In this document: piece after piece, positions 13,980-51,587 of the stretch
Position numbering within the stretch: the stretch's first letter is position 1
Layout: every line of letters begins with the position of its first letter
IMG/VR virus record: IMGVR_UViG_3300019487_000017
Length of the DNA stretch: 64,000 nt
Reading direction: 5' to 3' (one strand)
From: a virus
The notes under the pieces: model-generated
Told to the model about the DNA's origin: nothing
Databases searched by the model: none
What the model saw: only the letters and a program-made list of their open reading frames with translations
Made by a program: the position numbers and the translations under genes

Positions 13980-14462
13980 ATGCATGACGAAATAGGCACA
14001 TTTTTTATTGTTTTACGTCCGCAGATATTTTACACACTAGAAAATATTTTGCTTCAAGTTACTATTTCTGATTTGATTACGAATATTCAGGGAGGTTTGA
14101 AGCTGGAAGATATTCTTGCTGTTTACCCTTTTAATAGGTTAGATGATTCTCGTCAGTATGCGCAGGGTGCGATTGATGCATTGGAGGAAGAATATAAGGG
14201 AGATAATAAGCGATACATATTAGTATCATCTGTTGATAATGAATTACATACAGATGAGGGTAATATATGGGATATGATTATTTTATTGAGGGAATATTTT
14301 CTTTCTGTAGTAAAGAGTGATGAGCATGGTATAATAAATGATTTTACGCAGTTTTTTAATTTATCAAATAAAGGGGATAAGTTGAATATTGCGGGAAGGT
14401 TATTGATTTGTTTGGGTGGAGAAGAAGTTTCTCCAGAGGAAGAGGGATTAAAAATAGGATAG
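13980..14462 (+). CDS. Hypothetical protein
   Basis: 160-aa ORF. Confidence 0.65.
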   Translation: MHDEIGTFFIVLRPQIFYTLENILLQVTISDLITNIQGGLKLEDILAVYPFNRLDDSRQYAQGAIDALEEEYKGDNKRYILVSSVDNELHTDEGNIWDMIILLREYFLSVVKSDEHGIINDFTQFFNLSNKGDKLNIAGRLLICLGGEEVSPEEEGLKIG

Positions 14463-14618
14463 ATGGAAGCACAGCGGTGTGGTGACATACCTACAGTTTC
14501 TGAAAGGCTTGGTTAGATAATAGCAGTACTATGAGCTTGCTAGCCCGCAAGGGTTAATATGACAGGCTCGCCCCCTGGGAGATTGGAGACTCAGGAATTG
14601 ACTTGAGGCTGTGTATCT
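14461..14618 (+). ncRNA. Candidate structured RNA upstream of the tRNA array
   Basis: GCACAGC(14469)/GCTGTGT(14608) closing stem, GAGCTTG/CAGGCTC helix and a TAGCCC-GCAA-GGGTTA tetraloop hairpin; no ORF. Confidence 0.45.
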
Positions 14619-14697
14619 TTTTTCTTTTTAAAAATTAAAGAAGGAAAAAGAGAAAATTCGATTGTATGTGAGTAAGAGGTTGAGTAAGGTAAACAAA

Positions 14698-14805
14698 ATG
14701 TTAGAAGTAAGGAACAACATAGTTTGCAAGACAGCTGCGACAAATAGAATGTTTGCAGTTATTTTTGCGTGGAATAAAACTATGGGGTTCCTTCCTTTAA
14801 GCTGA
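14698..14805 (+). CDS. Putative attenuator leader peptide MLEVRNNIVCKTAATNRMFAVIFAWNKTMGFLPLS
   Basis: 35 codons; its 3' end carries the antiterminator strand; codons match the downstream tRNAs. Confidence 0.7.
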   Translation: MLEVRNNIVCKTAATNRMFAVIFAWNKTMGFLPLS

Positions 14806-14870
14806 TAAGAATCAGCAAAACCTAAAAAAGGAAGTAAACCCCGAAGCCAAAAGGTTATCGGGGTTTTTTA
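14784..14870 (+). promoter_or_regulatory. Mutually exclusive antiterminator/terminator (attenuator) for the tRNA array
   Basis: GGGGTT-C-CTTCCTT (14784-14797) pairs with AAGGAAG-TA-AACCCC (14828-14842). This overlaps the terminator AAACCCCGA...TCGGGGTTTTTT (14836-14869). Confidence 0.75.
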
Positions 14871-14873
14871 TTT

Positions 14874-14945
14874 TCCAGGGTAGCTCAACGGTAGAGCGTT
14901 CGGCTGTTAACCGAATGGTTACAGGTTCGAATCCTGTCCCTGGAG
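14874..14945 (+). tRNA. tRNA-Asn(GTT)
   Basis: Cloverleaf; TTCGG-CTGTTAA-CCGAA. Confidence 0.95.
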
Positions 14946-14956
14946 CTGGGGAATAT

Positions 14957-15029
14957 GTGGATGTAGCTCAGTTGGTAGAGCGCCTGCCTGAAGAGCAGGG
15001 CGTCGTAGGTTCAAGTCCTATCATCCACA
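14957..15029 (+). tRNA. tRNA-Phe(GAA)
   Basis: Cloverleaf; CCTGC-CTGAAGA-GCAGG. Confidence 0.95.
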
Positions 15030-15233
15030 CTTATGCAGGTATTGGAAGAAGATTTTCGTGATAGATGTAAAGTTCTTCCAATAAAAGGTGTTTTTTATTG
15101 TTTAGGTATTAAGGTAGTTCGTTTAGGTAATAATAAGTGGCAGTCTGGTGATTGTAGGGGTAATTGGAAACAGGTTTATCAGGCTGTTATGTTGAAAATA
15201 AACGCTGTTCTTTGACAATTGAATATCATTTAT

Positions 15234-15308
15234 TCCAGGATAGTCATCAGGGTGATGGCGTTCGGCTGTTAACCGAAAATAAGGCTGGTTCGATCCCAGC
15301 TCCTGGAG
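15234..15308 (+). tRNA. tRNA-Asn(GTT), second copy
   Basis: TCCAGGA/TCCTGGA acceptor stem; TTCGG-CTGTTAA-CCGAA. Confidence 0.9.
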
Positions 15309-15309
15309 C

Positions 15310-15364
15310 TGACCTAATATAAATGGGCGTGAGCTGATTTCGGGTTCGACTCCCGTTCGGTCCA
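15310..15364 (+). pseudogene. Truncated tRNA-like element (T-arm and acceptor only)
   Basis: CGGG-TTCGACT-CCCG T-arm and GACC/GGTC ends; no D or anticodon arm. Confidence 0.45.
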
Positions 15365-15380
15365 TTTGATGAGATATAAT

Positions 15381-15461
15381 GTGGGCTGACCCAAGGTGAC
15401 GGGTTAAAGCGATGGTGAAGCACCGACAGGTGTAGTAGGGTTCGAATCCCACTGCGTCCAC
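15381..15461 (+). pseudogene. Atypical tRNA-like element, anticodon not assignable
   Basis: GTGGGC/GTCCAC ends; GGG-TTCGAAT-CCC T-arm. Confidence 0.45.
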
Positions 15462-15489
15462 TGAAGAACGCCTAAAATATATTGTAAAA

Positions 15490-15561
15490 GCCTCCGAAGC
15501 TTTAGCGGATGAGCAACTGGCTCTTAACCAGTGGAAGCCGGATCGTTACCGGACGGGGGCA
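15490..15561 (+). tRNA. tRNA-Lys(CTT), atypical T-loop
   Basis: ACTGG-CTCTTAA-CCAGT; T-loop ATCGTTA. Confidence 0.85.
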
Positions 15562-15613
15562 TAACTGACATGTGCTATAAAACCTTATATCTATAGATAT
15601 AGAGGTAAAGCAT

Positions 15614-16024
15614 ATGTTTGAATCTCATGTTAAAGGAGAATTAGCTCAATTGGAATTCCAAAAACGAGCATTAGAAAAAGGAATTATAGTTAGTCGTCCA
15701 ACAACAGAAAGCCGGTACGACTATATTATAGATGATAAGGGAGAACTATTACGGGCCCAGATAAAATATGCTGGTTCTACAACATCTAATAGTAATGGAT
15801 CAGTTTTAGTTAGATTAGAAAAAGAATGTCGAAGTAATGGGAAACGTAGGTGTTATTCTTCTGATGAAGTAGATGTATTATTTGTTTTTATACCGCAAAT
15901 AAATAAAATATGTCGTTTTGATACAATATTTTTTGTTGATAAATCTACATTAACTATTAGAATCGAAACGGCTAAAAATAGACAAACAAAGAATGTTTAT
16001 TTAGCTCAAGATTTTATATGGTAA
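15614..16024 (+). CDS. PD-(D/E)XK endonuclease (I-Ssp6803I-like homing type)
   Basis: KGELA, SRP, RYDYIID, RAQIK, Y...EVDVLFVF. Confidence 0.85.
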   Translation: MFESHVKGELAQLEFQKRALEKGIIVSRPTTESRYDYIIDDKGELLRAQIKYAGSTTSNSNGSVLVRLEKECRSNGKRRCYSSDEVDVLFVFIPQINKICRFDTIFFVDKSTLTIRIETAKNRQTKNVYLAQDFIW

Positions 16025-16030
16025 TATTGT

Positions 16031-16103
16031 GCCGGAGTAGCTCAGCTGGTAGAGCGCCGTATTTGTAATGCGGATGTCGTGGGTTCGATCCCCTCCTTCG
16101 GCT
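16031..16103 (+). tRNA. tRNA-Thr(TGT)
   Basis: Cloverleaf; CCGTA-TTTGTAA-TGCGG. Confidence 0.93.
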
Positions 16104-16546
16104 TTTAAAAATATGTTAGAAGATAAGACACTTAAAAATTTGCAAAATACATATGAAGAGCGTCAATGTCGTGTAGGTTCTGCTCCTGACTGGGAGTATG
16201 GTATAGTTGAGAAAGTTTATCAGGCAAGAAATAGAATTGATGGACTTTATAAATGTAAAGTAATAATGGATAATAATGTTATAAAGTACATAGACATTAA
16301 TGAGATTCATATTTTTTGAGGAATAAAAATGGTTAATCAATTGCCAATTAAGGTTCAGAAGTTGATTATTGGTTCAAGTGATTTGATGACTATAGCCTAT
16401 GGTAATAAGGTTTATTTTTATTTATCTAAGGAAAACAAACAGACAAGAACAAAGATTGAAGCGATAATGAAGACTCATGTACCTGATCGGGAGTATGAGA
16501 TTAAAGTAGTTGGTAAGATTGTTGCAAGTCCTGCAACATAGCATAT

Positions 16547-16617
16547 AGGTTGTTCGTATAGTGGCATTACCTTCGTCTCCAAAACGAAAGACAGGGGTTC
16601 GATTCCTCTACAACCTG
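16547..16617 (+). tRNA. tRNA-Trp(CCA)
   Basis: AGGTTGT/ACAACCT; TTCGT-CTCCAAA-ACGAA. Confidence 0.9.
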
Positions 16618-16630
16618 TTTCCTCCAGTAT

Positions 16631-16703
16631 AGAACGGTAGCTCAATTGGCAGAGCAGTTCCCCGATTAGGAACTTGTTGTAGGTTCAACTCCTATCCGTT
16701 CTA
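16631..16703 (+). tRNA. tRNA-Ile(GAT)-like with a non-canonical loop (C33, U37)
   Basis: GTTCC-CCGATTA-GGAAC; otherwise a normal cloverleaf. Confidence 0.8.
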
Positions 16704-16720
16704 CTTGAAAGGTAAGTCTT

Positions 16721-17026
16721 ATGAAAAAGATTGCTGGACCCCATACATCGTATGAGGCGAGACGATTAGATACTCCATCTGACCCAGAAAATTCTGGATG
16801 GCAATTGGTTGTTTTTGAGGCTGATTATAACAAAGAAGGGGGTAGAGAAGTATCTTATGATGCTTGTTTAGAAGCTGCTGTATTGGCAACTGATGGGAAG
16901 ATGACAAATGTAGTTATTGTGAAGGTAGAGGTTGAGTACTGTAAACCTTCAAAACAGGAAATTAGGGATTTGATAAAGAAACATAATGCAGACCCTTTTA
17001 CTAATCCTGTTAACATGGCAGAGTGA
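16721..17026 (+). CDS. Hypothetical protein within the tRNA array
   Basis: 101-aa ORF; 3' end overlaps tRNA(CAT). Confidence 0.6.
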   Translation: MKKIAGPHTSYEARRLDTPSDPENSGWQLVVFEADYNKEGGREVSYDACLEAAVLATDGKMTNVVIVKVEVEYCKPSKQEIRDLIKKHNADPFTNPVNMAE

Positions 17027-17089
17027 GTATTGGTTTCTCGGATACGTTTCATAAGCGTGTTTATGTCGGTTCGATTCCGACCTCTGCTA
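17017..17089 (+). tRNA. tRNA(CAT), Met or Ile2
   Basis: GGCAGAG/CTCTGCT; loop TTCATAA. Confidence 0.8.
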
Positions 17090-17405
17090 CTTTATTTGGA
17101 GAAAAAATATGCCTTGTAGTGGTCCATCAATTCCATACGATCAGGCTAAAGAAGCTTATGAGGATGTTTATAAGTATATGAAGGAAAAATATAAGCTTTT
17201 TAGTTCTGATGAGGTTTTAGATAAAATTTCTCCTGCTGGATTCAGGAAGAATTGTTTAGAACAACGAAATAAGGCTGAGGAAAAGTTGAGAGAGGCTGTT
17301 TTAGATTTGTTTACTTGTGATGCGTTTGAGTCATGGTAATTTTTTAGAAAGGAGATTAATCATGCGTTATAAACGTGTTAGCGTTGATGAAGATGATAAA
17401 CGCTA

Positions 17406-17478
17406 GATCCCGAAACCTTTAGTGGATGAGGCTCAGACTTTTAATCTGATTAAGTCGGATCGTTACCGAACGGGATCA
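17406..17478 (+). tRNA. tRNA-Lys(TTT), atypical T-loop
   Basis: TCAGA-CTTTTAA-TCTGA; T-loop ATCGTTA. Confidence 0.85.
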
Positions 17479-17486
17479 TTTTTTAA

Positions 17487-17559
17487 GGGTTCGTAACTCA
17501 ATTGGTAGAGTAACAGCCTTTTAAGCTGTGAGTTGCGGGTTCGAGTCCCGCCGGACCCA
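17487..17559 (+). tRNA. tRNA-Lys(TTT), canonical
   Basis: ACAGC-CTTTTAA-GCTGT. Confidence 0.95.
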
Positions 17560-18269
17560 TTATGAAAATTACTATTACAGCGAGAGAGATTTTGAACAAA
17601 GGTTCTTGGGACAAATTCTGTCATAAGTTTGGAATTAATGAATGGGCAATGAATGAAGGTCGTATGGATCCATCTGAAGAGTTTACAATGACTCTTGAGG
17701 ATGCTAGAGAGATAGGATTAATCAATGATTTATCTGGACCATCCAATTTTCGCAGCAATTAATTCCAGTAACGCAATAGCCTCTTCTCCAGAAGGACCAT
17801 TTATTTCTAACGATAAGGAATCGTTAGAGGGTGAGTTAGAATCGTGGAAATATGATGGTTGTACAGTTGAAGAGATTGTAATTACAAGGAAAAAAGATGC
17901 CAGCCATTCCATTGCGATTGATTAAGGCTGAAGACATCAGTTGCCTTAGTTTAATTTCTAAGGCGTATCCTTATACGAGTGGGCTGATTATTGCCCTCAG
18001 TAATGAAAAAGGAGAGTGTGTTAGATATTGGGATGGGGATATGTTTATGCTCTTTGGAAGTGAAACAAGAGCAGAGGATCCAAAAACATTAAGTTCAAAG
18101 ATGATACCTTTTCAGCTTAAGAAAGCAAAAGAGTACGCATCACAGATTATTGTTGATGAGAAAATAGTGGATTTAGCTTTTTGGCTTCATCCTGAGTTTG
18201 ATTATCAGGCGATAGATAAATATAAGAATTTAAGATATCTATTCCCTGGTTGTCCGAGACAGTAAATAT

Positions 18270-18342
18270 GGGCCTGTAGTGTAATTGGGAACACACTTGG
18301 TTTGCAACCAGGGATTGAGGATTCAAATTCCTCCAGTGTCCA
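18270..18342 (+). tRNA. tRNA-Ala(TGC) with a 1-nt bulge in the acceptor stem
   Basis: CTTGG-TTTGCAA-CCAGG; G3:U70 retained. Confidence 0.75.
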
Positions 18343-18723
18343 CTTTTGAGAGGATATAATGGCTGTCATAGATCCAAATATTTCTCCTATAGATTTAAAA
18401 ATCATGCAAAATCTTCATAAGGTTGTTCGTTTGCGAGAAGAGTGCCTGAAAGAGCAAACGAATCATTATGGAAACAAAGAGAAAATGTTAGAGTATCATA
18501 ATGTATGTGAACAATTGACATCGGAGCATGTAAAGTTATATACTTCTTTGTCTCCGTTGGGCAAGGATCAGTATGATTTATGGAAGGCATATGAATTACC
18601 TTTGCCTGAATTGAATAGGAAAGGTGTTCAGCGTCCTAAGTCAGTATATCAGCGGTTACATGAGACATTGTTGTCTGGTATACCGTTTGAGTGAAAGTGA
18701 GCGCTAGTAGCTCAGAGTATTTC

Positions 18724-18797
18724 GCGCCCGTAGCTTAGCCTGGTAAAGCACTATCCTGATAAGATAGGGATCACAGGTTCAAATCCTGTTGGGCGCA
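18724..18797 (+). tRNA. tRNA-Ile(GAT)
   Basis: CTATC-CTGATAA-GATAG. Confidence 0.93.
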
Positions 18798-18836
18798 TTA
18801 AAGGATAAAAGTGAATAGACTTCTGCTATGTAATAG

Positions 18837-19268
18837 TTGAGTTCTATTATAAATACTAAAGCAAAAGGCGATGTTTCGACGGCGGTTATTTTTGCTGCCT
18901 TAGTAAAAAACGGTTTTACGGTCTTAACTCCTTGGGGAGATAAGAATCGTTATGATTTAGTTGTAGATGATAACGGAAAATTTATTCGCATTCAGTGTAA
19001 AACTGGATGCTTAAATAATAAATGCATAAATTTTAGAACTTATTCATTGACAACGAAAAACGGCAAATCAGTAAAATCAAATTATACAGCGGAAGAAATT
19101 GATCTATTTATGGTTTATTGTCCAGAGATAGACAAAATCTATGTGATAAATCAATTTGAAGTACCAAATAATATTTGTATTCTACGGGTGTCATCGCCGA
19201 AGAATAACCAAAAGACGAATATCAAGATGGCATGTGACTTTGAATTTAATGGGCTTCTGTGTATATGA
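18837..19268 (+). CDS. PD-(D/E)XK endonuclease (I-Ssp6803I-like homing type)
   Basis: KGDVS, PWGDKNRYDLVVD, RIQCKT, Y...EIDLFMVYCP. Confidence 0.88.
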   Translation: MSSIINTKAKGDVSTAVIFAALVKNGFTVLTPWGDKNRYDLVVDDNGKFIRIQCKTGCLNNKCINFRTYSLTTKNGKSVKSNYTAEEIDLFMVYCPEIDKIYVINQFEVPNNICILRVSSPKNNQKTNIKMACDFEFNGLLCI

Positions 19269-19308
19269 CTAAAAATAAAAAATATGAGTGGTGAATTTTA
19301 AGTAATTC

Positions 19309-19381
19309 GGGGCTATAGCTCAATTGGGAGAGCAGCACCTTTGCAAGGTGAAGATTGCAGGTTCGATTCCTGTTAGCTCCA
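19309..19381 (+). tRNA. tRNA-Ala(TGC)
   Basis: GGGGCTA/TAGCTCC; loop TTTGCAA. Confidence 0.93.
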
Positions 19382-20291
19382 TTCTTCTCCAGAAGTTACT
19401 ATCCTTCCATAAGACAGTTTAATCTTATAGAACAATAAGGAAAATATATGCATAAGTTTATGATTCATTTTCAGAGCGCGGCTTATTCAAATGAATTATA
19501 TGATGTTTTTGGAAGAAACATATATTCGCTTGAGAAAGCAATTAAAACAGCGGAAGATATGTATGGGAGTAAGGGTTGGGAAGTATATAACGGAATTGAA
19601 AGCGAAAACAGGTTTAGGTAATGAACAATAAAACGATGATAATTTCAGATCAACAACTAATTGATAAGTTGGCAAATAAACATCAGGTTAACTTGCTAGG
19701 TGCGAATATTATTTGTACAGATGAGAAACCAATTGGAAATGGTATTTTTGGTTGTGCAAGATGCGAACTAATTAATTATTTCCAATTTCAAGAAGAAAGT
19801 GGAGATAATGCATCACCCTAATATTTTCGCAGCACTTTTTCAAGAGATAATTACACAATTATCTAAGGAAGAACAGAATACACTATATAACTTGTGTAAT
19901 TCAAATAATGTGACAGAAACCGAGTTGAACGTATTGCGAGGAAAGATTCAGGTTTTAGCCAATGGAACAACACTCACAATACAAGCAAGAAACTTTTTGT
20001 CTTTTTTATTGAATGGACTTCCTAAGACTCCTGAGAAGAAGTTGAGCATAGATATTGACATAAACCAACGTCCAATATAAGGTTGGTATTAAAATGGAAG
20101 AAGCAGAGGTTCTGAGTTAAGGTTGATATTGTTAGTACTCCTGATGATAAACCTCATTTGCAAGTTTCTTTGTGTACAGAGGGATATCCTTATCTTGTAC
20201 TGATAGAGTCTGATTCTATACTGTTGGATTTAATACAAAACGCCAAGATTATTATGTAGACGTTAAGGGATCGTAGCTCAACTGGATTAAC

Positions 20292-20363
20292 GCGAGCGTA
20301 GCTCAAAGGCGGAGCAAGGAACTCATAATTCCGGGGTTGTAGGTTCGAATCCTACCGTTCGCA
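20292..20363 (+). tRNA. tRNA(CAT), Met or Ile2
   Basis: GCGAGCG/CGTTCGC; loop CTCATAA. Confidence 0.88.
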
Positions 20364-20405
20364 TTAGAAACGACGATATTTAAATTCTTTATTATCTTCA
20401 ACTTC

Positions 20406-20481
20406 AGCATGACAATTTAAACAATGGTAGCATTCCCCCGCGTAGGCTGGGGGAGGTAAGAGTTCAAATCTCTTAATGTTT
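20406..20481 (+). pseudogene. Degenerate tRNA-like element
   Basis: AAGAG-TTCAAAT-CTCTT T-arm, CCCCC/GGGGG stem with an oversized loop, weak acceptor stem. Confidence 0.4.
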
Positions 20482-20493
20482 TTGTGGTTATAT

Positions 20494-20565
20494 GTCCCTG
20501 TAGGCTAACGGATAAACCCACTGCCTTCTAAGCAGTTTTTGCAGGTTCGAATCCTGCCAGGGACA
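20494..20565 (+). tRNA. tRNA-Arg(TCT)
   Basis: ACTGC-CTTCTAA-GCAGT. Confidence 0.95.
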
Positions 20566-20840
20566 CTTGAATAATTTTTCCCTCCTATAAGAAATTCATC
20601 TTTAAATTCAAAAATTCTCTTAAAAACTCTTGATTTCTATAAATATTGTGTTTTTAAGGGTTTAAGATACTAATCTTGTAGCTATAAAGATAGAAATGCG
20701 AAGATAGAAGATTAGAATTGTTGATTATCTCCAGAATTAAGATATCATTCTGTAGTAACTTCGTTGAAGCCAATCATATTCATTCGAATGTTCGAATGAG
20801 ATTAGGCTAAAAGGTATCCATACAATCAAAGGAAACTGTT

Positions 20841-21503
20841 ATGGATCGCAAAGGTACTGCAGTTCTCAATGTTGATGCTGTTGTCGCGGAATTCGCAAAT
20901 CGTTCAAAGCGTTTGCGAGAAATCGTGAAGCAGCAAGGTCTTTTGGCGAAGCAGCGGGCTCAAATCGAACAGCAGCAAAATCAGTTGTCGAATGAAGTTC
21001 AACGGCTGATGGGTACGGCTGAAGAGAATTCGACTATTGCTCCGCGTCGTCGCGGTCGTAAGCCTGGTCGCAAGCCCAAGGCTGAAAAGACTGCAAAGAA
21101 CGCTCGTAAGGCGAATGGTAACGGTGAAAAGACCGTTGCAAAGCGGAATGGTCGCGGTCGTAAGCCTTCCGGTGAAAGTCTTCGCGACGTTCTGTTGACG
21201 GTTCTCCCGTCTGCCTCTGAAGACCCAATTTCGAAGGATGAGATTGTTACTCGTCTGACGAAGAAGGGTTACAAGTCTACGGCGAAGGATCCGAAGGTGG
21301 TTATTGGTCAGGCGCTCGGCAAGCATCGGGATTTCTCGGTTGTTGAACGCGGCAAGTGGCGTTTGAGTGCCACTGGAGTCAAGAATCGGGATAAGATGGT
21401 TGCTCCTGCTACCACGGCTCCGGTTGCTGGCCCGACCCCTGCTCCTGTCGAGGCAGCTGCTGAAACTGCCTCTGCGGAAACGGCTGCAGCGGCTGCTGAG
21501 TAA
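20841..21503 (+). CDS. Basic nucleoid-associated-like protein (coiled coil, RGRKP repeats, probable winged helix, Ala-rich tail)
   Basis: RRGRKPGRKP, GRGRKP, C-terminal F-V-RGKWRL; own promoter-like sequence (TTGATT-N16-TATCAT at 20721) and a downstream hairpin. Confidence 0.65.
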   Translation: MDRKGTAVLNVDAVVAEFANRSKRLREIVKQQGLLAKQRAQIEQQQNQLSNEVQRLMGTAEENSTIAPRRRGRKPGRKPKAEKTAKNARKANGNGEKTVAKRNGRGRKPSGESLRDVLLTVLPSASEDPISKDEIVTRLTKKGYKSTAKDPKVVIGQALGKHRDFSVVERGKWRLSATGVKNRDKMVAPATTAPVAGPTPAPVEAAAETASAETAAAAAE

Positions 21504-21528
21504 GCAGTAAAGTTTAGATGTAGAAATA

Positions 21529-21569
21529 ATAAGTACAGCTATCTTCAATTGTGAGATAGCTGTACTTAT
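21529..21569 (+). terminator. Long hairpin / terminator
   Basis: TAAGTACAGCTATCT...AGATAGCTGTACTTA. Confidence 0.6.
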
Positions 21570-21577
21570 ATTCTTAC

Positions 21578-21650
21578 GCTTGCGTAGCCTAACGGATAAG
21601 GCATCACTTTCCTAAAGTGAGATATGGAGGTTCGAATCCTCCCGTGAGCA
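21578..21650 (+). tRNA. tRNA-Arg(CCT)
   Basis: TCACT-TTCCTAA-AGTGA. Confidence 0.93.
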
Positions 21651-21686
21651 TAATTTTACGATATTAGATTATTAACGGAGATATTT

Positions 21687-21824
21687 ATGTCATATATTTA
21701 TTCTGGTCCAGAACAAGAAGAAGATGATGAAGACTTTGAAGAAGACGAAGATGATTTTGATTGGGATGAGGATGACGACGATTGGGAAGATGACGAAGAT
21801 GATGACGAATTTGATGATGAGTAA
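21687..21824 (+). CDS. Very acidic 45-aa peptide
   Basis: GGAG RBS; MSYIYSGPEQEEDDEDFEEDEDD...DDE. Confidence 0.6.
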   Translation: MSYIYSGPEQEEDDEDFEEDEDDFDWDEDDDDWEDDEDDDEFDDE

Positions 21825-21832
21825 GTAAAAAC

Positions 21833-21936
21833 GCACCCCTAGCTCAATTGGTAGAGCAGCGGGCTTATACCCCGCCCCCGGAAACGGGAGTTCCCAGATT
21901 AGGAAACGGTTGTAGGTTCGAGTCCTACGGGGTGTA
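21833..21936 (+). tRNA. 104-nt tRNA-Ile-like gene with two anticodon-like arms (TAT and GAT)
   Basis: 7-bp acceptor, normal D and T arms; GCGGG-CTTATAC-CCCGC, CCCG-GAAA-CGGG, TTCC-CAGATTA-GGAA. Confidence 0.8.
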
Positions 21937-22401
21937 TTAAAAGGGATAAATATCTAATTTAAAAAGGAGATGTTTATGTCGGAATATTATTTTGCAGTTT
22001 TGCCACAGTTCCCTGGAACCCCAATTAAAGGTGGGAAAAGGGCTGCGAAGCAGCGTGATAAGATTGCGAAAAATATTGATCCCAAGGGGGATATACATAT
22101 TATTTTGATTCTGCTGAAAAACGTTGGCGTGGTTGGGGTTATTGTCTAAATCTTGGACATCCATTTGATAGAGCAACTGCTAAGGCTATTGAAGAAGCGT
22201 GGGAAGCTGCGGGTATATAATAATGAATAAAAAGGTAGTCTTGACAATTATTTGTAGTTTGGTAGGTATAGGACTACTTTTATTTCTAATATACATTTTA
22301 TTTGGGCAAAGTATATTGGGAATTGCTGCTTGTATCCTTGTAGGAATGTTTTTAGCGTTTGTATTGTATGTTTTGGCTAGTGGCATGGGTGAATAACTTT
22401 T

Positions 22402-22473
22402 GGGGATATAGATTAACGGGAAATCGTCTCAATGGCATTGAGAAAAGTAAGGGTTCGACTCCCTTTATCTCCA
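22402..22473 (+). tRNA. tRNA-Ala(GGC)
   Basis: TCTCA-ATGGCAT-TGAGA; G3:U70. Confidence 0.9.
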
Positions 22474-22834
22474 CTGAAAGAATATGTAGTAAGAATATAT
22501 GCCTGCAAATATAGATTTTGCATTAATAGAACGTTCACTTACACTATTTTCCACTGGACAATTTGATTCCCGTCAGGATGCATTAAAGGCTGCAATTGAA
22601 GAAAGAAAAAAAGAACAGCGTAAAAAGCAAGATAAAGAAATAGAAAAAAGACAGCAAGAAATTGATGATTGGGCTTAACACATCTAGAAGACTCTCCGGT
22701 ACTTAGAATTATTAACATAGCCTTTGAATAAGAGGCTATGTTATGAATAAAAAAGAAACAAAGACATTAGTACTCCCGTCTGGTTTATCATTAGATGAAA
22801 AAAGAGTGCTTTAAAGCTTCTTAGTTCACTTCCC

Positions 22835-23668
22835 ATGCGTTTCATAGATGATAAACGTTTACACACCAGTTTAGCGCACATAACACTATTTAAAGAGAAA
22901 TTGGATTTAAGTGATGCTGAGTTAGCTTGGCATAAGATGTTGGTTGTAGAAAATTCATATGATTCTGCGCCCAGAGTTTTACGCAAATCTGAAGAACAAA
23001 TTTTATTCTTGCAATTCAATTATGCGCGTTATGTTTGTTCAACAATTCAAACAAAAGCTCAAAAGAAAAAGCTTACTTTAAAAGAAGTTAGACACATAAT
23101 TTTATGGAGTCAAATTGTAGATAAGCTTAAAAGTAATATTGTGGTAGCTAATTTAGGTTTGATTTATAAGATGTTGAAATATACTGGATATTCTAATAGT
23201 CCAGACTTTGATAATTTAGTGACAGAAGGACAAATGTGTTTACTACGGTGCTTAGACACATTTGATGTTTCAAAGGGATTTAAATTCTCCACATATGTTT
23301 GTGGTTCATTACATAAGAGCTATAGGAGATATTCTCAAAGATTAAAATTCAGGCAAATAAAAGAAATATCTTATGATGGAGCTCTAGATATATTTGAGGA
23401 TCACAGAGCTTTTTCTGTGAAAGCTGATGAAAGATTAGAAAACGATGATATGTTTAAATATGTAAGGAAAGTTTTAAAAGATAATGATGCTGATTTGACT
23501 CCGGTAGAAAAGACCGTAGTGAAGCACCGTTATGGATTTTCACAGGATCCTAAAACTTTAGATGAAGTGGGTGATATAATTGGAGTAACTAAAGAAAGAG
23601 TGCGTCAAATACAGATTAAAGCACTTGGTAAATTAAAGAAGGCTATGGTGGCAACTGTTGAAGTGTGA
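22835..23668 (+). CDS. Sigma-70 family RNA polymerase sigma factor
   Basis: Region 2 ANLGLI...EG...FDVSKGFKFSTY; region 4 TLDEVG-IIGVTKERVRQIQIKALGKL. Confidence 0.92.
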   Translation: MRFIDDKRLHTSLAHITLFKEKLDLSDAELAWHKMLVVENSYDSAPRVLRKSEEQILFLQFNYARYVCSTIQTKAQKKKLTLKEVRHIILWSQIVDKLKSNIVVANLGLIYKMLKYTGYSNSPDFDNLVTEGQMCLLRCLDTFDVSKGFKFSTYVCGSLHKSYRRYSQRLKFRQIKEISYDGALDIFEDHRAFSVKADERLENDDMFKYVRKVLKDNDADLTPVEKTVVKHRYGFSQDPKTLDEVGDIIGVTKERVRQIQIKALGKLKKAMVATVEV

Positions 23669-26259: not shown

Positions 26260-26679
26260 GGATGAAACTATGAGAAAAGATGATGTTTATAATCGTTGTA
26301 GAGTAATTGAATTAGAACATATTTTACGTCTTGCTTTCAATGCGAATAATCTTACTGAAGATATCCGTAAGAAAATGGATATAGTGTTGAATAACGTTAA
26401 ATTGTTTGAATCATCTGAGCAATTATATTGGAGTGGAGAGATTTATTATCCTACTGGAAAAAATGGCAATCGTCTAAGTGATGGTTTAATGGGTAGGGAG
26501 TTTGCTTCAGAGAAAAATTCAGCAAATAGAGTTTGGTTATATCGTGATGGTACGGTTGCGCCTGTTTGAGAATATTCTCCAGGCAAATAGAAAATTTGAT
26601 TAGAAATGTTGTTCTTGAATCTTTTTGCTGGCTCTACCACTCAGGTTCAGCAAGTTCAAGAACTCATTCCCCATTTTTG

Positions 26680-26714
26680 ACCCCAGGTTATCCCCGCCTG
26701 GGGTTTTTTATTTT
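26680..26714 (+). terminator. Intrinsic terminator
   Basis: ACCCCAGG/CCTGGGGT plus T-tract. Confidence 0.75.
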
Positions 26715-26724: not shown

Positions 26725-27060
26725 ATGAAAAACACAGAAGCACACAAAAGAGCTATTCGTGCAGCAGGAAAAGCACTGTTTGATAATTTGCTACAACTAA
26801 GAAAGGAGTATGATTCAGAAACTCCTGGATGGTTAACTGGTGCTAATATTCTTGTTGATTTGCTGGTGAATAAAGAAGCTTGGGCAAATAGCAATGATTT
26901 TATTGCACTTGTTCAAACCGCTGTTTCTGATCTGGATAAGGCTTCCGTAAAGTATAAGGATTCACTCCAATACGATATTTTGCAGGATTTAAAAAAGCAT
27001 TTGGTAACATGGTTGAATGACAATAAAATTCCACTTACTTTTAATCCAACATCAAATTAA
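26725..27060 (+). CDS. Hypothetical protein
   Basis: Start re-assigned to the ATG at 26725, after the terminator. Confidence 0.6.
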   Translation: MKNTEAHKRAIRAAGKALFDNLLQLRKEYDSETPGWLTGANILVDLLVNKEAWANSNDFIALVQTAVSDLDKASVKYKDSLQYDILQDLKKHLVTWLNDNKIPLTFNPTSN

Positions 27061-27156: not shown

Positions 27157-27184
27157 TTGCAATCTTTTCAATCTCTGATAAGAT
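27157..27184 (+). promoter_or_regulatory. Putative sigma70 promoter for the large ncRNA
   Basis: TTGCAA-N16-TAAGAT with an extended -10 TG. Confidence 0.55.
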
Positions 27185-27190
27185 ACTTGC

Positions 27191-27690
27191 ATAGTCGTCA
27201 TCGAGAGCAACAAAAACGTAACGTTGTTCAAGATAATGATTACGAGTGAAGTATCACAGAGAAGATCGAGAAATTACTTATCGAAAGATGAGGAAATAAA
27301 TCGGTTGGAGTGATGCGGACGCTGGGTAATAGTAGTCGTATGTTTGGAAACTAATTATGTGGTAGCAAGTTCCAACATTACAATTACAGCAGCTTTTTAC
27401 GCAAACTAAAAAGCGGTAGGTAGTTGGAATAAGGGACAGCCAAAACATAATAGCCTTGTAATCTCTGAATTAAACAGTCAGAGAACAATAGGTAGAAATG
27501 CCTTAGAGCCAGAATAAAGGTAACACTGAAAACTGGTGCTAAAACAAGGTAAATATAACGGCTAACGGAAACCTGAAAAGACTATTATCAGCAATTGATT
27601 CTCAAAACTCCTGAACCAATAAGGGAGTACATGAGACAGCAATATGAGCCAACTTGGTTGAAGGCTCATATGAAATCAATTACTTCACTC
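27191..27690 (+). ncRNA. Large ornate ncRNA (~500 nt), possibly ROOL-like
   Basis: No ORF; nested long-range helices 27244-53/27681-90 and 27321-33/27581-92; many hairpins; own promoter and terminator. Confidence 0.75.
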
Positions 27691-27703
27691 TATTTTAACT
27701 ATA

Positions 27704-27738
27704 AAAACACCCTGCCCTAAAAAGCAGGGTGTTTTCTT
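27704..27738 (+). terminator. Intrinsic terminator after the large ncRNA
   Basis: AAAACACCCTGC/GCAGGGTGTTTT. Confidence 0.8.
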
Positions 27739-28271
27739 GCGCTTCTCCTGAGATTTCACATTATTACAAGGATAAATATGAAAATTATTATTCGAACATA
27801 CCAAGGATTGATACATGACATTATCGCTGAATCTGATTGCGATGTTGTCGTTACTGAAATCGATGAAAAAGAACAAGTTGTAGAAACTTTATGGCGGAAA
27901 AATTTCCCCGCTAATAACCTAGCTACATCCTTACATGAAGCATTAACTCTTGAAACAAAGGAATAAATAATGAAGATGTACTATACTGAGACTCCTGATT
28001 ATAGAGAATCTCTTATGCTGGAATGTTCTAAAGAGCTTGCTTATAGAACTGGTGAAGGCGCTGGTAGTTGGCGCAATGGTTTGCCCGATTGTTTTCGTAA
28101 ACTTGCAGAACTTGCATGTATTGATACTGAATCTATTAATTGGTTAAGTGTAGTTGAAGGAATAGTTCATCGTTGGGCTATTCTTCAAATATCTGAAATG
28201 ACTTTTAAGCTTTAAAAATCATCTCCCGATAAAATTCTATCCAAATTATAAACATAAAAGGAGAATAATTT

Positions 28272-29654
28272 ATGGCGGTCAAAGTAAAAGGTGATAAAGT
28301 TAAGGAACCAACAAAGGCGCAACTAGATACCGCAGTTGCAAAAGAACGCCTTATTTGTGTAGATGTTGATGATAACAACTGTAAGTTTTGGCACGGATTT
28401 GCCTTAGCAAATGGTGACGGTTTCTGCGAATGGGGAAGAGTTGATAAAACGCGACAACATGAATATTACAATTTTGGCAATGTAAGTGATGCTCAAAATT
28501 GGCTTGAAAGTAAAACCCAGGAAAAATTGAATAAGCGTGGTAAGGCTTCTTACACTCGACAGAAGACAATCGATAATACTGGAACTGTCAATCGTACTTC
28601 TGTTGGTGGCGGTTCTGTTCGCTCTTCTGATTTAAAGAATATTGCAGCGCAACAGATTAAGGGTGATAGCGAGACAACAAAGCTTGTAACTTGGCTTGCA
28701 GAAGTCAATGTACATCAAATTACTAAGAATACTCAAATTACATATAACGTTCAAACTGGATCATTCAGTACGCCATTAGGTTTAGTTACTCCTGATGGTA
28801 TTACTGAGGCTCGTGATATTCTGAATGGCATTTGCGATTATGTTCAGAATAGGGATTGGAATAACGCAAAATATAAGAAACTATTAAGTGATTATTTGCG
28901 TATTATTCCGCAGAACGTAGGTATGGTTCGAGGTTGGCATGAGACTATTTTTGCTCCTGCCGATTCCTTGCAAAAGCAGAATGATATTCTTGATTCGTTG
29001 TCGGCGTCTTTACAGGCACCGTCTACAGGAAAAAAGTCATCTGCTGGAAACGTAACGGAAAGCGTTTTCAACGTTTCTCTCGAAACCGTTTCAGATCCAG
29101 CAATTATTTCTCGCATTCGAGCAAAATACAACAGCGAAAAGGGAAGTCATTACGACGTAAAGGACTTCGATGTAAGGAAAGTTTGGACTGTTCATATTAC
29201 AACAGTCAGAAGTGCTTTCCAAGGTGACGGTATTAAGGTAGGCGGTATGATGCAACTTTGGCATGGAACAAAGGCATCTAATGTTTTGTCTATCTTAAAG
29301 GGAGGATTGGTTATTCCTCCTGCCAGTGCATCGCACGTTTGTGGACGTATGTTTGGTAATGGATTGTATTTCTCTGACCAATCGACTAAGAGCATTCGTT
29401 ATGCTACAGGCGCTTGGACAGGCGGTGGGAATACAGAACGAGTATTTATGTTTATTGCTGATGTTGCAATGGGCAAATACTATACGCCGCAAGGTTATCA
29501 GAGTGGTTCATTCCGCGTACCGTCTGGCTATGACTCCTGTTTTGCTAAAGGCGGTAAGTCTGGGGTACAGAATAACGAAATGATTGTTTATCGCGTATCT
29601 CAGGCAGATTTGACTTATTTGGTTGAATTTGGACGTAACAAGACTGGATGGTAA
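28272..29654 (+). CDS. WGR-domain PARP-family ADP-ribosyltransferase
   Basis: EWGRV (WGR), helical middle domain, LWHGT, SILKGGL, GRMFGNGLYF, KS-RY, NNEMIVY (H-Y-E triad). Confidence 0.92.
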   Translation: MAVKVKGDKVKEPTKAQLDTAVAKERLICVDVDDNNCKFWHGFALANGDGFCEWGRVDKTRQHEYYNFGNVSDAQNWLESKTQEKLNKRGKASYTRQKTIDNTGTVNRTSVGGGSVRSSDLKNIAAQQIKGDSETTKLVTWLAEVNVHQITKNTQITYNVQTGSFSTPLGLVTPDGITEARDILNGICDYVQNRDWNNAKYKKLLSDYLRIIPQNVGMVRGWHETIFAPADSLQKQNDILDSLSASLQAPSTGKKSSAGNVTESVFNVSLETVSDPAIISRIRAKYNSEKGSHYDVKDFDVRKVWTVHITTVRSAFQGDGIKVGGMMQLWHGTKASNVLSILKGGLVIPPASASHVCGRMFGNGLYFSDQSTKSIRYATGAWTGGGNTERVFMFIADVAMGKYYTPQGYQSGSFRVPSGYDSCFAKGGKSGVQNNEMIVYRVSQADLTYLVEFGRNKTGW

Positions 29655-31118
29655 TACATAATTATTTGTAATATTTAACTCCGGGAAAGATAAGATGAAC
29701 TTCTTATTTGCGGGCAAGAGGTAAATACTATTATCTTGCTTATAATAGGTTGTCTCAGGATGCGACAGCATTTGAAGATTTCATTGAAAGACGTAAAGCA
29801 AACAAGGAGTCAACATGAGAGATACTTCTATGCGGGAAAAGAAATTTCAAGAAGCCCAAAATGACTTAAAATCTCTGTTTGACTTATGGGAGAAAGTAAA
29901 TGAAAGTATTACTTTTTTGCAAGGGGATTATGACAGAGAATTGATTAAAGAGCCAGAAGTTATTGTAAACGCTATGAGCGATTATGTAAATAACTATGGT
30001 TTTGAACCTCATAAATTTGTAGAACTAATGAGTAGGCAACATAGGAGCTTACAGCAATCTTTTACCAGACTTGTTCTTATGTGGCTCCTGCATCTGTCTC
30101 AATTGGAGGAAGGATATTACGACGGTCGTAATGAGGTTGCCGTAAATATCGCCAAAAAGATTATGAAGGGGCTGGATAAGCACGATGTCAATTTGCCTCT
30201 AATTTAATTTTCTCCTGTCCAAATAATCTGATAAGGAAGAATATCATGAAATTACTTTGGATTCACAATATCACAGTTCAGGTCATTGTTTCAGACGATG
30301 AAGTTGCTACTGAAGAAAAAGCAATTGAAACAGCCAGGACTGTAATAACAGATTTAAGATCGTATGTATCTAGGGCTTATGATTTGAAAGATGCAACTAT
30401 TGCAACTGACCCTAATGAGGTCAAAGAAGTTGAAATTCTTAAGGCGAGATAAATCATGCAGACACTTTGTCCTATTACTGATTGGCAAACATCCATTGTT
30501 GAGAAGGGTCCGTTTAAGGGCAATGAAACTAAGCAACGTTATGTTGCGGCTGCTGATAATTGGTGCTGGATTATCGGGTTACAGCGTAATAAAGAAGATG
30601 CAAATGTAGTTGGTGAAAAGTTTTATGGCAATATGAGACACTTTTTGCCTGCATTGTTTAAGCAAATCTCTCCTGTTGCACCAATTACAGTCGTTAAAGC
30701 ACTCTTGAATAGGATTGGGGTCAAGCAAGAAGTTCCAACAGAATTCACCAGCGAAGCAGAATGCGAGAAGTACGGCAAGAGTTTGGACGACTCATATGGC
30801 ACGAGCTATATGAGAGAGTACCCCCCTACTGTTATGAAGAGAATTTTTAAGTCTGAAGAAAAGGATGAGACATAAGGGGAATACAGGGAAGAGAATGGTG
30901 TGTATGGATTCTTTACTGGAAAATGATCTTAACAAAATATTCGCAGCAGACTGGACAGAGACTCAGTGGAAAGATTATTTAACTGATTTAGATAATCGTC
31001 TAAATGATACTAATAAACCTTTATTAGCCCGTGTAAGGGTTAATGATGCGCTTATTCTTTATCTCCGGCTCCAAAAGTAACTGCAAGACTCAAAAGAGAC
31101 ATTAATTTGGATTAAATC

Positions 31119-31697
31119 ATGTATAGAATTATACCTGGCGATGCAACTAACCCGCAACCTTTGAACAAAGATTCAGAAATCTGGATCCCACACGTTTGTA
31201 ATGATTTGGGATTATGGGGTAGCGGATTTGTAAATGCTATTACTGCACGTTGGGGAGAAAGTGCTAGGACTGCATATATTATGTGGTCTAAAGCATTTAA
31301 GAATACTTCTATCACTCTTTCTGCAACAGATACAGAAATAGTCGGTAATTCATATTTTGTCTTAGGTGGGCATCAAGCTTTAAGAGTTTTAAACTCTCCT
31401 GATAAGATTCATATCTACAATATGATTGCCCAACATGGAGTAAGAGGTGATGATTCTCTCCGTCCACCGATCAGGTATGCAGCATTAGCGGAGTCTATGG
31501 CGTCATTAACGCCACTGCTTAGATCTAACTCTGAAATTCATTGTCCAAAGTTTGGTTCGGACTTGGCTGGTGGCAAATGGGAAGTAATTGAAGCACTAAT
31601 TCATGAATTGTGGGTAGATGAAGGTTACAATGTAACCGTTTACGAATTTCAACCAAAAGTTTCTCCTGAAAATAAAGAAATGCCAAGTTTAGATTAA
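31119..31697 (+). CDS. Macrodomain ADP-ribosylhydrolase (TARG1/DarG-like clade)
   Basis: GDAT, HVCND-G-WGSGF, NMIAQ, HCPKFGSDLAGGKW-IE-LI. Confidence 0.88.
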   Translation: MYRIIPGDATNPQPLNKDSEIWIPHVCNDLGLWGSGFVNAITARWGESARTAYIMWSKAFKNTSITLSATDTEIVGNSYFVLGGHQALRVLNSPDKIHIYNMIAQHGVRGDDSLRPPIRYAALAESMASLTPLLRSNSEIHCPKFGSDLAGGKWEVIEALIHELWVDEGYNVTVYEFQPKVSPENKEMPSLD

Positions 31698-35199: not shown

Positions 35200-35922
35200 A
35201 TGTCTCTGGCAACAGAGTTGGAAGTTCGTTCCATGCAAATCCCGTCAGAATATAAGGCAACGGATACATTCCGTCCTTTGTCTCACGGCGAAGTTTTGGA
35301 CCTTATCCAAAATGCGTTGTTTGCTTGCGGTCTTGATATCGCTCGCGATGACAATGGAACGTTGCGAAAGCGGTTTACGATTATCGATGGTGGCGCAAAG
35401 ATGTACGGAACTCTTCCGCTGACACAGCGCATTGACAACGATTCTCGTCTCATGGTTGGCTTTGCCAATTCTTGGAACAAGACTCTTGCACTGCGACTTG
35501 GTTTCGGTAGCGAAGTGTTTGTTTGTACCAATGGCTGTTTCTTTGCTGAAAAGGTTATTGGTCGAAAGCATACGCAGAACATTATTGACGACCTCCCGAA
35601 CCTTATCGCTACCGCATTGTCTCAAACGAAGACTTATGTTGAACAGCAAGGTAAGTTCTTCGGTCGCTTGCGAGACGTTCAGTTGAATGATAAGGATGTT
35701 TCGCATTTTGTTGTCCAGTCTGCAATGAAGTATGAATGCATTACTGGCGGCGAAATTATTGACGTTATCTCTGAATGGCGAACTCCGCGATTTGCTGAAT
35801 TTGAACCGCGTACCGCTTGGTCGCTTCATAATGCTTACACTGAGGTTGGCAAGCGAATTCAGGCAAAGAATGGTACAATCCATTCAGAACGTATGGTTCG
35901 TATGTCAACCATGTTTGTTTAG
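35200..35922 (+). CDS. DUF932/DUF945-like phage or plasmid protein
   Basis: PLSH, GFANS, G-EVFVCTNG, RKHT, TAWSLHNAYTE. Confidence 0.75.
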   Translation: MSLATELEVRSMQIPSEYKATDTFRPLSHGEVLDLIQNALFACGLDIARDDNGTLRKRFTIIDGGAKMYGTLPLTQRIDNDSRLMVGFANSWNKTLALRLGFGSEVFVCTNGCFFAEKVIGRKHTQNIIDDLPNLIATALSQTKTYVEQQGKFFGRLRDVQLNDKDVSHFVVQSAMKYECITGGEIIDVISEWRTPRFAEFEPRTAWSLHNAYTEVGKRIQAKNGTIHSERMVRMSTMFV

Positions 35923-37915
35923 ACTTTTGCTACTGACCTCCAGTTGGCAACAAGTTTGAACCAACCTGTTGTTGATGCAGCAGTTGTTCAGTAAATTTAA
36001 CATCGAGGGACAGGGGCTGGGGATTGCTTCACCCAGCTTCTGTCCTTTAAGGAGTATAGTATGATAATTTCTGAACTACCCCATGTTGAAGAATTCTCCA
36101 GGATTGATGGTATAAAACTTTGGGGTAGGGGGATTTACTGGAGGATTAGATACATTATATACCGCACATGGGCTTTTGAATTTGAACAATCAACATGTGC
36201 TGCTTATGATGCCTTCAATGACCCAGAATGGGAAAAAGGCAGAAGAATGCAGGGCAACGTTTAAGAGAAGCTGTTTAGATTTGCCAAAAAATACGGCAGA
36301 TAAAATTTATGCTGTTGTTGAAATTCGTCCATCTGTATCTTTTGAAAAACATGCCGGGGGAGCATGTACAATGCCTGATGAGCAGAATTTTTACGCATGA
36401 TGAAGTTTTGATTAATATGTACCAGCTTGATTTTGATAATAGGGAACCAATTGTAGGTTCTGTAATAGAACATTATCATTTCCCGTTAGAGGGAAGAATT
36501 CACGAATATATCGATATTTTTAGGAAGATGAAATGAAACAGATTACTACAGCAAAGGATCTGGTCGATCTCCTGTTTTTACGCAAGTATTCTGTTGAACT
36601 CCAAAACCTCATTTTCAAAATCAAAAATCTAGCAGAAAATTTGCAAGATGATGAAGTTGTAAGTCAATGCTGGAAACTTGATGAAGAGTTTGCTCAAATT
36701 GGCAAACGTTATAGAAACGCTATGCCTAAAGAACATATTAGTGGAGTGGAAGAAGAAAAGAAACGTCGGGGATATTAAAAAAAACTCCAAAAAGAAAAGT
36801 GTATAATCATGCAATTTGATGTTTTGATTATTGCTCGTGATGGTAAGTGTTTTGTTACTAAACGAGTTACCTCCAGCAATGAGGCAGACTTAGACATGGC
36901 ATTGAACGATTTAACCAATAGTGGTTACGTTATTTTTACAGTTGTCAAGGCTTAAAGGAGATACTATGAGCCAGTTTGCAAGAGAACAACGGGAAAAGTT
37001 TTTGAATCGAAAGAAAAATAACAGTCAAACTGGCGCTGTTTTAGTTTTTAAGCCTGATATTTCTGTTGAGGAAGCAAAGCGTGTTATCGAGGTAATTGCA
37101 CCTTATTTGGATTCGGGAACAATAAAAGAGTTTGACCCTGATATCGGTTATCCAGTTTTCTATGTTCCATAGGAAAGTATTGTCATGCTTAATACAGTAA
37201 GGGAAATCCGTAAGGCTATTAGAGATAATTTGAATTGTAGAGGGGGTGGGGTTTATCTTGCATATCGTAATCTTTCTGAAGATTATTTTAAGCCTTTAAC
37301 AGCATCAAGACTAATGGATGCGAAAACGGTTAAAGGGCAACTTAAAGTACAACTCCTGGAAACTGGTTGTTGGGAAACAATAAGAGAAGGGGATAAAATA
37401 GAGGTAAGATAATGAAAATCAAACTTATCCAACCTGATAATGCTCCTAACTTTTGTTTTGTAGTTCTGAAACAAGTGACTATTGGTAAAAAAGGGAATTT
37501 ACTTAAAAAACCTTTCTTTCCAGATTACAATCATTCTGAATATGAAGAACACTCTACATTCATTCAATCTGACTGGGAGTATCCAGGAACGGCTAGTAAA
37601 TTTGGTTGGGTAGGGGAAGATTCTGATTTATCTGGCGCATATCAGTTTCTATGCGATAATGTTGGTAAAATTGTTGAAGAGTAGATATTATGACAAAAAT
37701 TAAACAATTGATGCAGATTGAGGGATTTGAGAATCTGAACGATTTCATTGAGGAACGAGCAGATGATTCCATTGTTCCTGGTATTTGCACGAATGTTGAA
37801 TGTAATTATACTACCGAAGTTGAACCAGACTGTAGGGAAGGCTATTGTGAAGAGTGTAAAACACAATCGGTTAAATCAGCACTTGTCCTATTAGGCATAA
37901 TGTAGAGGTATTAAA

Positions 37916-51416: not shown

Positions 51417-51576
51417 GCCCCTGTAGCTCAGCGGACTAGAGCGTTCACAAGCTTCAGATATGCTTTTTTGTAGTTGGAAGCGCTTCTTGCTACAAAATAG
51501 ATAGTTTCTAGGGCTATCTAAAATAGTGTTAATGAATCTAAGTGAAAGGTCGTTGGTTCGAATCCTTCCAGGGGCT
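51417..51576 (+). tRNA. tRNA-Arg(TCT)-like gene interrupted by a ~85-nt insertion in the anticodon loop
   Basis: GCCCCTG/CAGGGGC acceptor, D-arm with A20, TTCAC...TCTAA-GTGAA, T-loop TTCGAAT. Confidence 0.7.
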
Positions 51577-51587
51577 TTTTGATATAC

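Follow-up and report, generated by a model that had tools for sequence, protein, structure and literature searches.

A predicted large structured RNA of an uncatalogued family in a phage-like contig and its homologs at metagenomic PARP loci

A stretch of 64,000 nt from the virus record IMGVR_UViG_3300019487_000017 (hereafter the window, meaning the whole stretch of DNA analysed) harbours what is very probably a real and conserved RNA gene. The RNA measures about 550 nt including its terminator, with a core of 447 nt, and together with two distinct homologous sequences from metagenomes it appears to represent a real, conserved and uncatalogued family of large ornate phage RNAs, a verdict that rests on these three sequences. 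Its length of more than 400 nt, the freedom from open reading frames (ORFs) and a multi-junction fold with covariation (in three sequences) are the features by which large ornate noncoding RNAs of phages are recognised.

The function of the cages formed by ROOL and GOLLD RNAs is described as not known, and Kretsch et al. ask whether cages are common among large natural RNAs (PMC12286853). An unrelated family of ROOL/GOLLD size with a natural loop-swap pair, AACCAA/UUGGUU versus CUGAUU/AAUCAG, offers a direct test of kissing within versus between molecules, and its RNA, at about 550 nt, is a compact target for cryo-EM. Furthermore, if the link to the neighbouring gene of a PARP-family ADP-ribosyltransferase proves true, it would be the first functional handle on large ornate phage RNAs.

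The RNA gene and its outer signals

The longest stop-free runs in the RNA-bearing stretch are 41 codons on the + strand and 65 codons on the - strand, which bears out an earlier sequence-only reading of this DNA that had called the stretch ORF-free. The stretch was spanned, as a single contig without variants, by one DNA sequencing run, which may be its source. The same reading had proposed a stand-alone RNA of about 500 nt with its own promoter and terminator: the terminator is indeed in place (Table 1), as are the promoter-like site and the ORF-free sequence between them, and the length is to be corrected to about 550 nt with the terminator. Both homologs also end in terminators of their own.

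The promoter-like site consists of the -35 hexamer TTGCAA (27157-27162), a spacer of 16 nt with TG at 27176-27177, and the -10 hexamer TAAGAT (27179-27184). It agrees with the consensus at 8 of 12 positions and was found by our own pattern scan, and transcription would start near 27191. Homologs L248 and L251 have TTGCAA-16 nt-TATTAT ahead of the RNA, i.e. the same -35 hexamer and spacer as the window. The claim of an own promoter hence stands as a candidate site with a -35 hexamer and spacer shared by the homologs, but the consensus promoter scan did not list it, its score being below the threshold of that scan. Transcription from a sigma70-like promoter is probable from the sequence.

Table 1. 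Coordinates of the RNA gene, its parts and its neighbours in the window (for the last row, in the homolog loci).
Feature	Position	Strand	Basis and remarks
tRNA island	14874..22474	+	17 Rfam tRNA matches; ends 4.7 kb upstream of RNA
Sigma-70 factor, Planctomycetota type	22835..23668	+	Pfam; host clue
111-aa ORF upstream of RNA	26725..27060	+	tblastn E 1e-9 to L233
Sigma70-type promoter-like site	27157..27184	+	Sequence, pattern scan, homologs
5' hairpin with internal loops	27192..27242	+	Fold, pair probability 0.97; z -3.9
Conserved core closed by P1 (27244-53 with 27681-90)	27244..27690	+	z -11
Kink-turn-shaped arm	27254..27313	+	Fold; homolog loop
Junction motif ATGCGGA	27313..27319	+	Identical in window, L248 and L251
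Central domain	27321..27592	+	Fold, R2 model match, per-helix tally
3' domain: closing helix and two hairpins with complementary loops	27593..27681	+	Fold, homologs
Intrinsic terminator	27704..27740	+	12-bp stem and T tract; hairpin 27704-27735
PARP-family ADP-ribosyltransferase gene	28272..29654	+	Pfam PARP E 9e-24
CCGGAAAAT...AAAAAGGTTATATG motif	L248 9320-9400, 9650-9700; L249; L251 2915-2950		

Folding signal

The stretch 27190-27740 folds at -167.6 kcal/mol (z -8.8, none of 100 shuffles being as good), and the core alone, without the terminator and the 5' hairpin, has z of -11.0 on the + strand and -3.7 on the - strand. Among 447-nt segments of the 64 kb, the core ranks 2 of 566 after adjustment for base composition. 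By a fit to GC content only it ranks 13 of 283; as the RNA is rich in A, this measure understates the folding signal. The sequence-only reading had named seven arm pairs, all of which were recovered at their coordinates, six of them as exact reverse complements and one, GCTGGGTAATAGT/ACTATTATCAGC, with one G-U pair and one bulge. For another of these pairs, TTCCAAC/GTTGGAA, there is a competitor, GTTCC/GGGAC, which is favoured in the fold and at whose position the homologs have GTCC/GGAC (by eye, not tallied).

Other stretches of the window are also structured. The top-ranked folding segment of the 64 kb is 50170-50445 (+), where a single multiloop joins three long hairpins (-97.6 kcal/mol, z -9.4) and no Rfam family matches; it is a candidate for a separate noncoding or antitoxin-like RNA. 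The ORF-poor stretch 52200-52700 (+; z -6.6) has long hairpins and ends in a tRNA-shaped element with a long extra arm (approx. 52598-52692), called neither by ARAGORN nor by Rfam. Just 5' of the first tRNA, about 400 nt of nested hairpins with a terminator-like stem at their end (14460-14870, +) rank 4 of 566 in adjusted folding energy. A long irregular hairpin with a terminator lies at 26560-26710 (+), upstream of the 111-aa ORF, and two long hairpins similar to it occupy 35900-36050.

Predicted structure

The fold of the window RNA was made before any homolog was known. A 5' hairpin is followed by the closing helix P1, which encloses a kinked arm, a central domain and a 3' domain. The loop of the 5' hairpin contains the 4-nt palindrome ACGT; in the fold of the homologs, this hairpin of about 50 nt is replaced by a larger 5' domain of about 150 nt. 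The inner seven pairs of P1 are kept in both homologs, with two compensatory columns, and its outer three are mostly broken.

The kinked arm has a 3-nt bulge followed by G-A, A-G and A-G (27258-63 / 27307-09); beyond these come an internal loop rich in A and then a GAAA hairpin. Both homologs retain the 6x3 kink loop, with G-A, A-U and U-U. This geometry, kept in all three sequences, fits the k-turn consensus or its A-U (Kt-23) variant (PMC2790904) and suggests a kink turn. A double T-loop (tRNA elbow clamp) was also considered in this arm and rejected, the second GAAAU being absent from the homologs.

The central domain comprises a long helix P4/P5, a three-way junction with GGCTAA-x-GGAAA, a long arm (27354-27451) and a four-way junction (27453-27550), in which an ATAA / GAAA internal loop is situated under a small hairpin (27509-27536). 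The homologs keep this AUAA/GAAA loop, which we take to be a UAA/GAN docking motif; a literature search on the term of that motif gave no match. In the 3' domain, the loops of the two hairpins are complementary, AACCAA (27614-19) with TTGGTT (27654-59), predicting a kissing-loop pseudoknot. The pair had been picked as the top unpaired complement before the homologs were known, and the kissing loop may serve as a tertiary contact. GNRA loops number two in the window RNA, six in L248 and four in L251.

Homologs and compensatory changes

The homologs were reached through alignment of the PARP protein, by which 23 metagenomic PARP loci were fetched. Four of them, L248-L251, carry an RNA homolog of approx. 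690 nt in two distinct sequences, which were matched by nhmmer (E 6.1e-9 for L250/L251 and 1.3e-5 to 1.7e-5 for L248/L249) and by the single-sequence model R2 (19.9 and 31.1 bits, respectively). The two sequences share 564 of 665 aligned positions (85% identity). When aligned to the window core, each agrees with it at about 66% of the positions aligned; the scores were 207 and 191, where shuffles reached 140 +/- 12. Both fold well on their own (z -7.6 and -6.9) and have, relative to the window RNA, the larger 5' domain and extra 3' hairpins.

The structure predicted from the window only was transferred to a blind MAFFT alignment. Of its 149 pairs, 26 had changed on both sides and were still paired; shuffles gave 11.1 +/- 2.4 such pairs, none of 500 reaching that count, and slid partners gave 2-11. 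The covariation among homologs by which the sequence-only reading had proposed to judge the RNA is thus present, on the thin basis of three distinct sequences, of which two are 85% identical, and relatedness can inflate such pair-count measures. Helices anchored on invariant motifs gave 45 columns, of which 26 are invariant. Among the others, both sides have changed in 14 columns, with pairing preserved in 11 and lost in 3, and one side has changed in 5, with pairing preserved in 4 and lost in 1. For each of the 14 double changes, the chance of staying paired is about 0.43 (binomial P 0.008). For the kiss, P2, P3, P13 and P14, the register was chosen by structure once the homologs had been seen, and in the 27 columns with a register of this sort all 18 double changes are kept, a count that is partly circular. 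The kiss reads AACCAA/UUGGUU in the window and CUGAUU/AAUCAG in both homologs, so that six of six pairs are complementary with five of the six changed; in the MAFFT alignment, however, the kiss is out of register (helix 20, with 67% of cells paired).

Genomic setting and host

The source contig has 233,620 bp and is phage-like, with several genes of PHROG families in the window; no structural phage gene was seen among the 36-38 ORFs scanned, and we presume a jumbo phage. The sigma factor has best relatives of 33-43% identity, of which the named ones are Planctomycetota and the GTDB loci mostly Phycisphaerae, so the host is likely a planctomycete, in keeping with the previous guess of a phage of PVC bacteria. 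A DUF1559 gene (Pfam) is also present in the window; the family is, we assume, linked to Planctomycetes.

The window has 19 Rfam tRNA matches in total, 17 of them in the island, outside which the RNA lies; in L248/L249, three tRNAs are found 4-7 kb upstream of the RNA. Several tRNA-like genes of the window are unusual. At 51417-51760 (+), a gene missed by ARAGORN (Rfam 38.6 bits) has a structured insertion of about 85 nt in the anticodon arm, followed by some 180 nt of further hairpins, and is possibly an intron-bearing or split tRNA. Another, at 21833-21936, with an enlarged anticodon region, scores 58.8 bits with Rfam and is uncalled by ARAGORN, and a third, with an odd start (20292-20363), has a short second copy of a tRNA 5' end upstream of 20292. 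A permuted tmRNA called by ARAGORN at 15273-15822 overlaps two tRNA genes, lacks an Rfam tmRNA match and is probably spurious. Inside the island there are two related phrog_5018 ORFs (15614-16024 and 18837-19268), which presumably resemble PD-(D/E)XK endonucleases and are perhaps homing nucleases of tRNA genes.

The PARP neighbourhood and patchy distribution

The PARP gene of the window begins about 530 nt downstream of the RNA terminator, with two small ORFs in between. Neither these adjoining small ORFs nor the 111-aa ORF on the upstream side match Pfam or PHROG. In the window and in all four homolog loci, the RNA is placed 0.3-1.0 kb upstream of PARP on the same strand, a nearness selected by the search, as homologs were sought at PARP loci. 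The PARPs of the carriers are only about 47% identical to that of the window, and upstream and intervening ORFs differ among the window, L248, L249 and L251.

Of the 12 metagenomic PARP loci that extend 1700 nt or more upstream, 3 carry the RNA, as does L250 (1397 nt upstream); it is absent from the other nine and from all seven PARP loci that a PARP-led scan of viral contigs had yielded. In L233, whose PARP is 71% identical, a homolog of the 111-aa ORF precedes PARP, and the DNA separating the two genes lacks the RNA. The sigma factor and flanking genes also occur in L244-L246, but no RNA was found there in the 10 kb upstream or in the downstream DNA examined. Given this patchy presence among syntenic relatives, the RNA resembles a self-contained cassette of promoter, RNA and terminator that has been gained or lost at the junction.

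Near PARP, within 28272-31697, lies a phrog_335 gene (31119-31697) that we take to encode a macrodomain. The pair recurs in L247, which suggests a writer and an eraser of ADP-ribosylation. In addition, a motif CCGGAAAAT...AAAAAGGTTATATG is repeated ahead of each small ORF between RNA and PARP, and probably represents a phage promoter that marks gene cassettes open to exchange.

Searches for further relatives

Blastn of the window RNA gave one chance match of 25 nt in phages and none in plasmids; with the homologs as queries against these two sets, it returned 1, 2 and 0 short matches. Motif scans of viral contigs returned 1, 42, 3, 5 and 0 loci, none homologous, and the metagenome motif scan returned none; these collection scans preceded knowledge of the conserved motifs. 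Scans led by the sigma factor and by a RadA-like ATPase revealed no relative of the RNA. Models R1, R2 and R3, run over 48, 42 and 42 viral records, produced one 19-bit match, situated inside an ORF; the blanks of R1 and R3 show little, because both also missed the true homologs. A consensus motif with two mismatches allowed had no match in 40 viral records, 401 Planctomycetota genomes gave two short chance matches in one search and none in a second, and a three-sequence profile over 255 loci retrieved nothing beyond L248-L251.

Two RNA motifs of 14-15 nt were absent from the paper texts searched, a scope outside which most subscription papers lie, and RNA motifs were also absent from seven of the nine supplementary files of a catalogue of viral structured RNAs (PMC10690425). 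The IMG/VR candidates of that catalogue are of at most 151 nt.

Possible roles of the RNA

The reading that we prefer, tentatively and aware that as a whole it may well fail, is that of an RNA gene acting as a self-assembling structural RNA in the manner of ROOL and GOLLD. The stretch would be transcribed as a stand-alone RNA of about 550 nt belonging to an uncatalogued family; the predicted fold of the transcript includes a kink turn and a kissing loop as well as GNRA and A-rich loops; and, by analogy with ROOL and GOLLD, it might self-assemble via kissing loops and A-rich docking motifs. We consider self-assembly the likeliest role because the size, the large phage-like contig, the nearby tRNA island and the own promoter and terminator match those RNAs. 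ROOL and GOLLD are reported to form RNA-only cages via kissing loops and A-minor contacts (bioRxiv 10.1101/2024.12.08.627333; PMC12286853; PMC5737381), and their kissing loops, first predicted by covariation, proved intermolecular (bioRxiv 10.1101/2024.12.08.627333). Against self-assembly it counts that the two kissing hairpins leave one junction and so could pair intramolecularly, and that no self-complementary loop is conserved in register: ACGT in the 5' loop of the window and GTAC in the 5'-domain loop of the homologs are not alignable and are common by chance. The analogy itself is weakened by the lack of any shared ROOL or GOLLD motif and by the distance of 4.7 kb to the last tRNA.

An intramolecular kiss would suit a monomeric scaffold or decoy RNA, which, similarly to OLE, would bind proteins of the host or the phage, the kink turn being the protein site. 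Such a role is possible, albeit unlikely. The kink-turn geometry shared by the three sequences argues for it, as K-turns bind proteins of the L7Ae family (PMC5061560) and the kink turn of OLE is the site of OapC (bioRxiv 10.1101/2024.12.08.627333), and invariant unpaired motifs such as ATGCGGA could be binding sites. However, PARP aside, no conserved partner gene adjoins the RNA, and the neighbouring ORFs vary.

PARP itself might be the partner, with the RNA as, for example, a nucleic-acid activator or inhibitor of ADP-ribosylation, and the position of the RNA upstream of PARP in four of four homolog loci and the window, despite PARP identity of about 47%, points in that direction. The homologs were nevertheless found solely because PARP loci had been fetched, 9 of 12 metagenomic and 7 of 7 viral PARP loci do without the RNA, L233 keeps the upstream ORF without it, L244-L246 lack it likewise, and the RNA carries a terminator of its own; we regard this partnership as improbable.

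Patchy presence at one gene junction among relatives, together with a large core rich in invariant positions, would also be expected of a ribozyme or a selfish mobile RNA cassette, e.g. an intron-derived promoter-RNA-terminator insert. Such an origin seems quite improbable, as the RNA has no Rfam match, introns and ribozymes included, no gene is interrupted, no flanking direct repeat was seen and the adjoining small ORFs match neither Pfam nor PHROG. A cis-acting leader of downstream genes, a DNA-level structure or chance folding, to which the folding of other stretches (50170-50445, z -9.4; 52200-52700, z -6.6) and the modest GC-only rank of 13 of 283 might point, is very improbable in view of the strand asymmetry with G-U pairs, the compensatory changes, the constitutive-looking terminator in all versions and the fact that the window, L248, L249 and L251 differ in the genes that directly follow the RNA.

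Going further than the self-assembling structural RNA that we prefer, one may picture the RNA as belonging to a third class of phage RNAs that form cages, unrelated to the other two and the first to come from jumbo phages of Planctomycetes, and as functionally coupled to PARP in an RNA-controlled ADP-ribosylation module for phage-host or phage-phage conflict; this picture we hold to be very improbable.

Comparison with known large RNAs

At gathering score, the window RNA had no match among all 4227 families of Rfam 15. At E<=10 there were nine weak matches, eight of them on the terminator region and one to a 17-bit fragment of a human lncRNA; the homologs matched no family at E<=5. In particular, the ROOL, GOLLD and OLE models gave no match, by which the alternative of a new large RNA left open in the sequence-only reading gains support, and its other suggestion, ROOL-like, fails in the sense of family membership, RF03087 being unmatched by the window (E<=10) and by the homologs (E<=5). 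Group I and II introns, RNase P RNA and tmRNA were likewise without Rfam match, and the flanking ORFs are whole. With the same tool, ROOL on a Ligilactobacillus plasmid scored 130 bits and a GOLLD locus 149.7 bits. The latter (L149, 1501-1916) lies just below the Rfam cut-off of 150 and belongs to G006, a complete jumbo phage record of 340 kb that carries both GOLLD and a PARP gene. A distant ROOL or GOLLD was rejected as well, the model tests being negative and no ordered set of motifs being shared (by eye).

With ROOL (RF03087), which averages 581 nt (PMC5737381), the RNA has in common the size, multistem junctions closed by a terminal helix, pseudoknots or kissing loops, and an unexplained role. 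It also shares a phage location near tRNAs, on a phage-like contig with the tRNA island 4.7 kb upstream. The consensus order of the six multistem junctions of ROOL is nonetheless unlike that of this RNA (by eye), and the two consensuses have only short likenesses at chance level, e.g. ACAAUAG; when a true ROOL locus was searched with the window RNA by nhmmer, the best E was 0.81, for a match partly outside ROOL.

GOLLD (RF02032) is similar as a phage RNA near tRNAs with GNRA loops and a covarying kissing loop, and in that the 3' part is conserved and the 5' part variable (50 nt in the window versus about 150 nt in the homologs), this division being a general trait and not a sign of membership. 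Many GOLLD RNAs exceed 800 nt, whereas the window RNA is shorter. The 3'-domain consensus of GOLLD (a GGGAA...AUAAUCC hairpin and a terminal GUAAUCUCA loop) is absent as such here, and the RF02032 model, which covers that conserved 3' domain, matched neither the window RNA nor the homologs.

OLE is known mainly from extremophilic bacteria, where it binds several proteins, with its kink turn as the site of OapC (bioRxiv 10.1101/2024.12.08.627333). Its length is similar and a kink turn is common to both, but the RNA described here has no Rfam match to OLE, resides in a phage-like contig and has no evident partner gene. By model test, the RNA is therefore not ROOL, GOLLD or OLE, yet it is of their kind.
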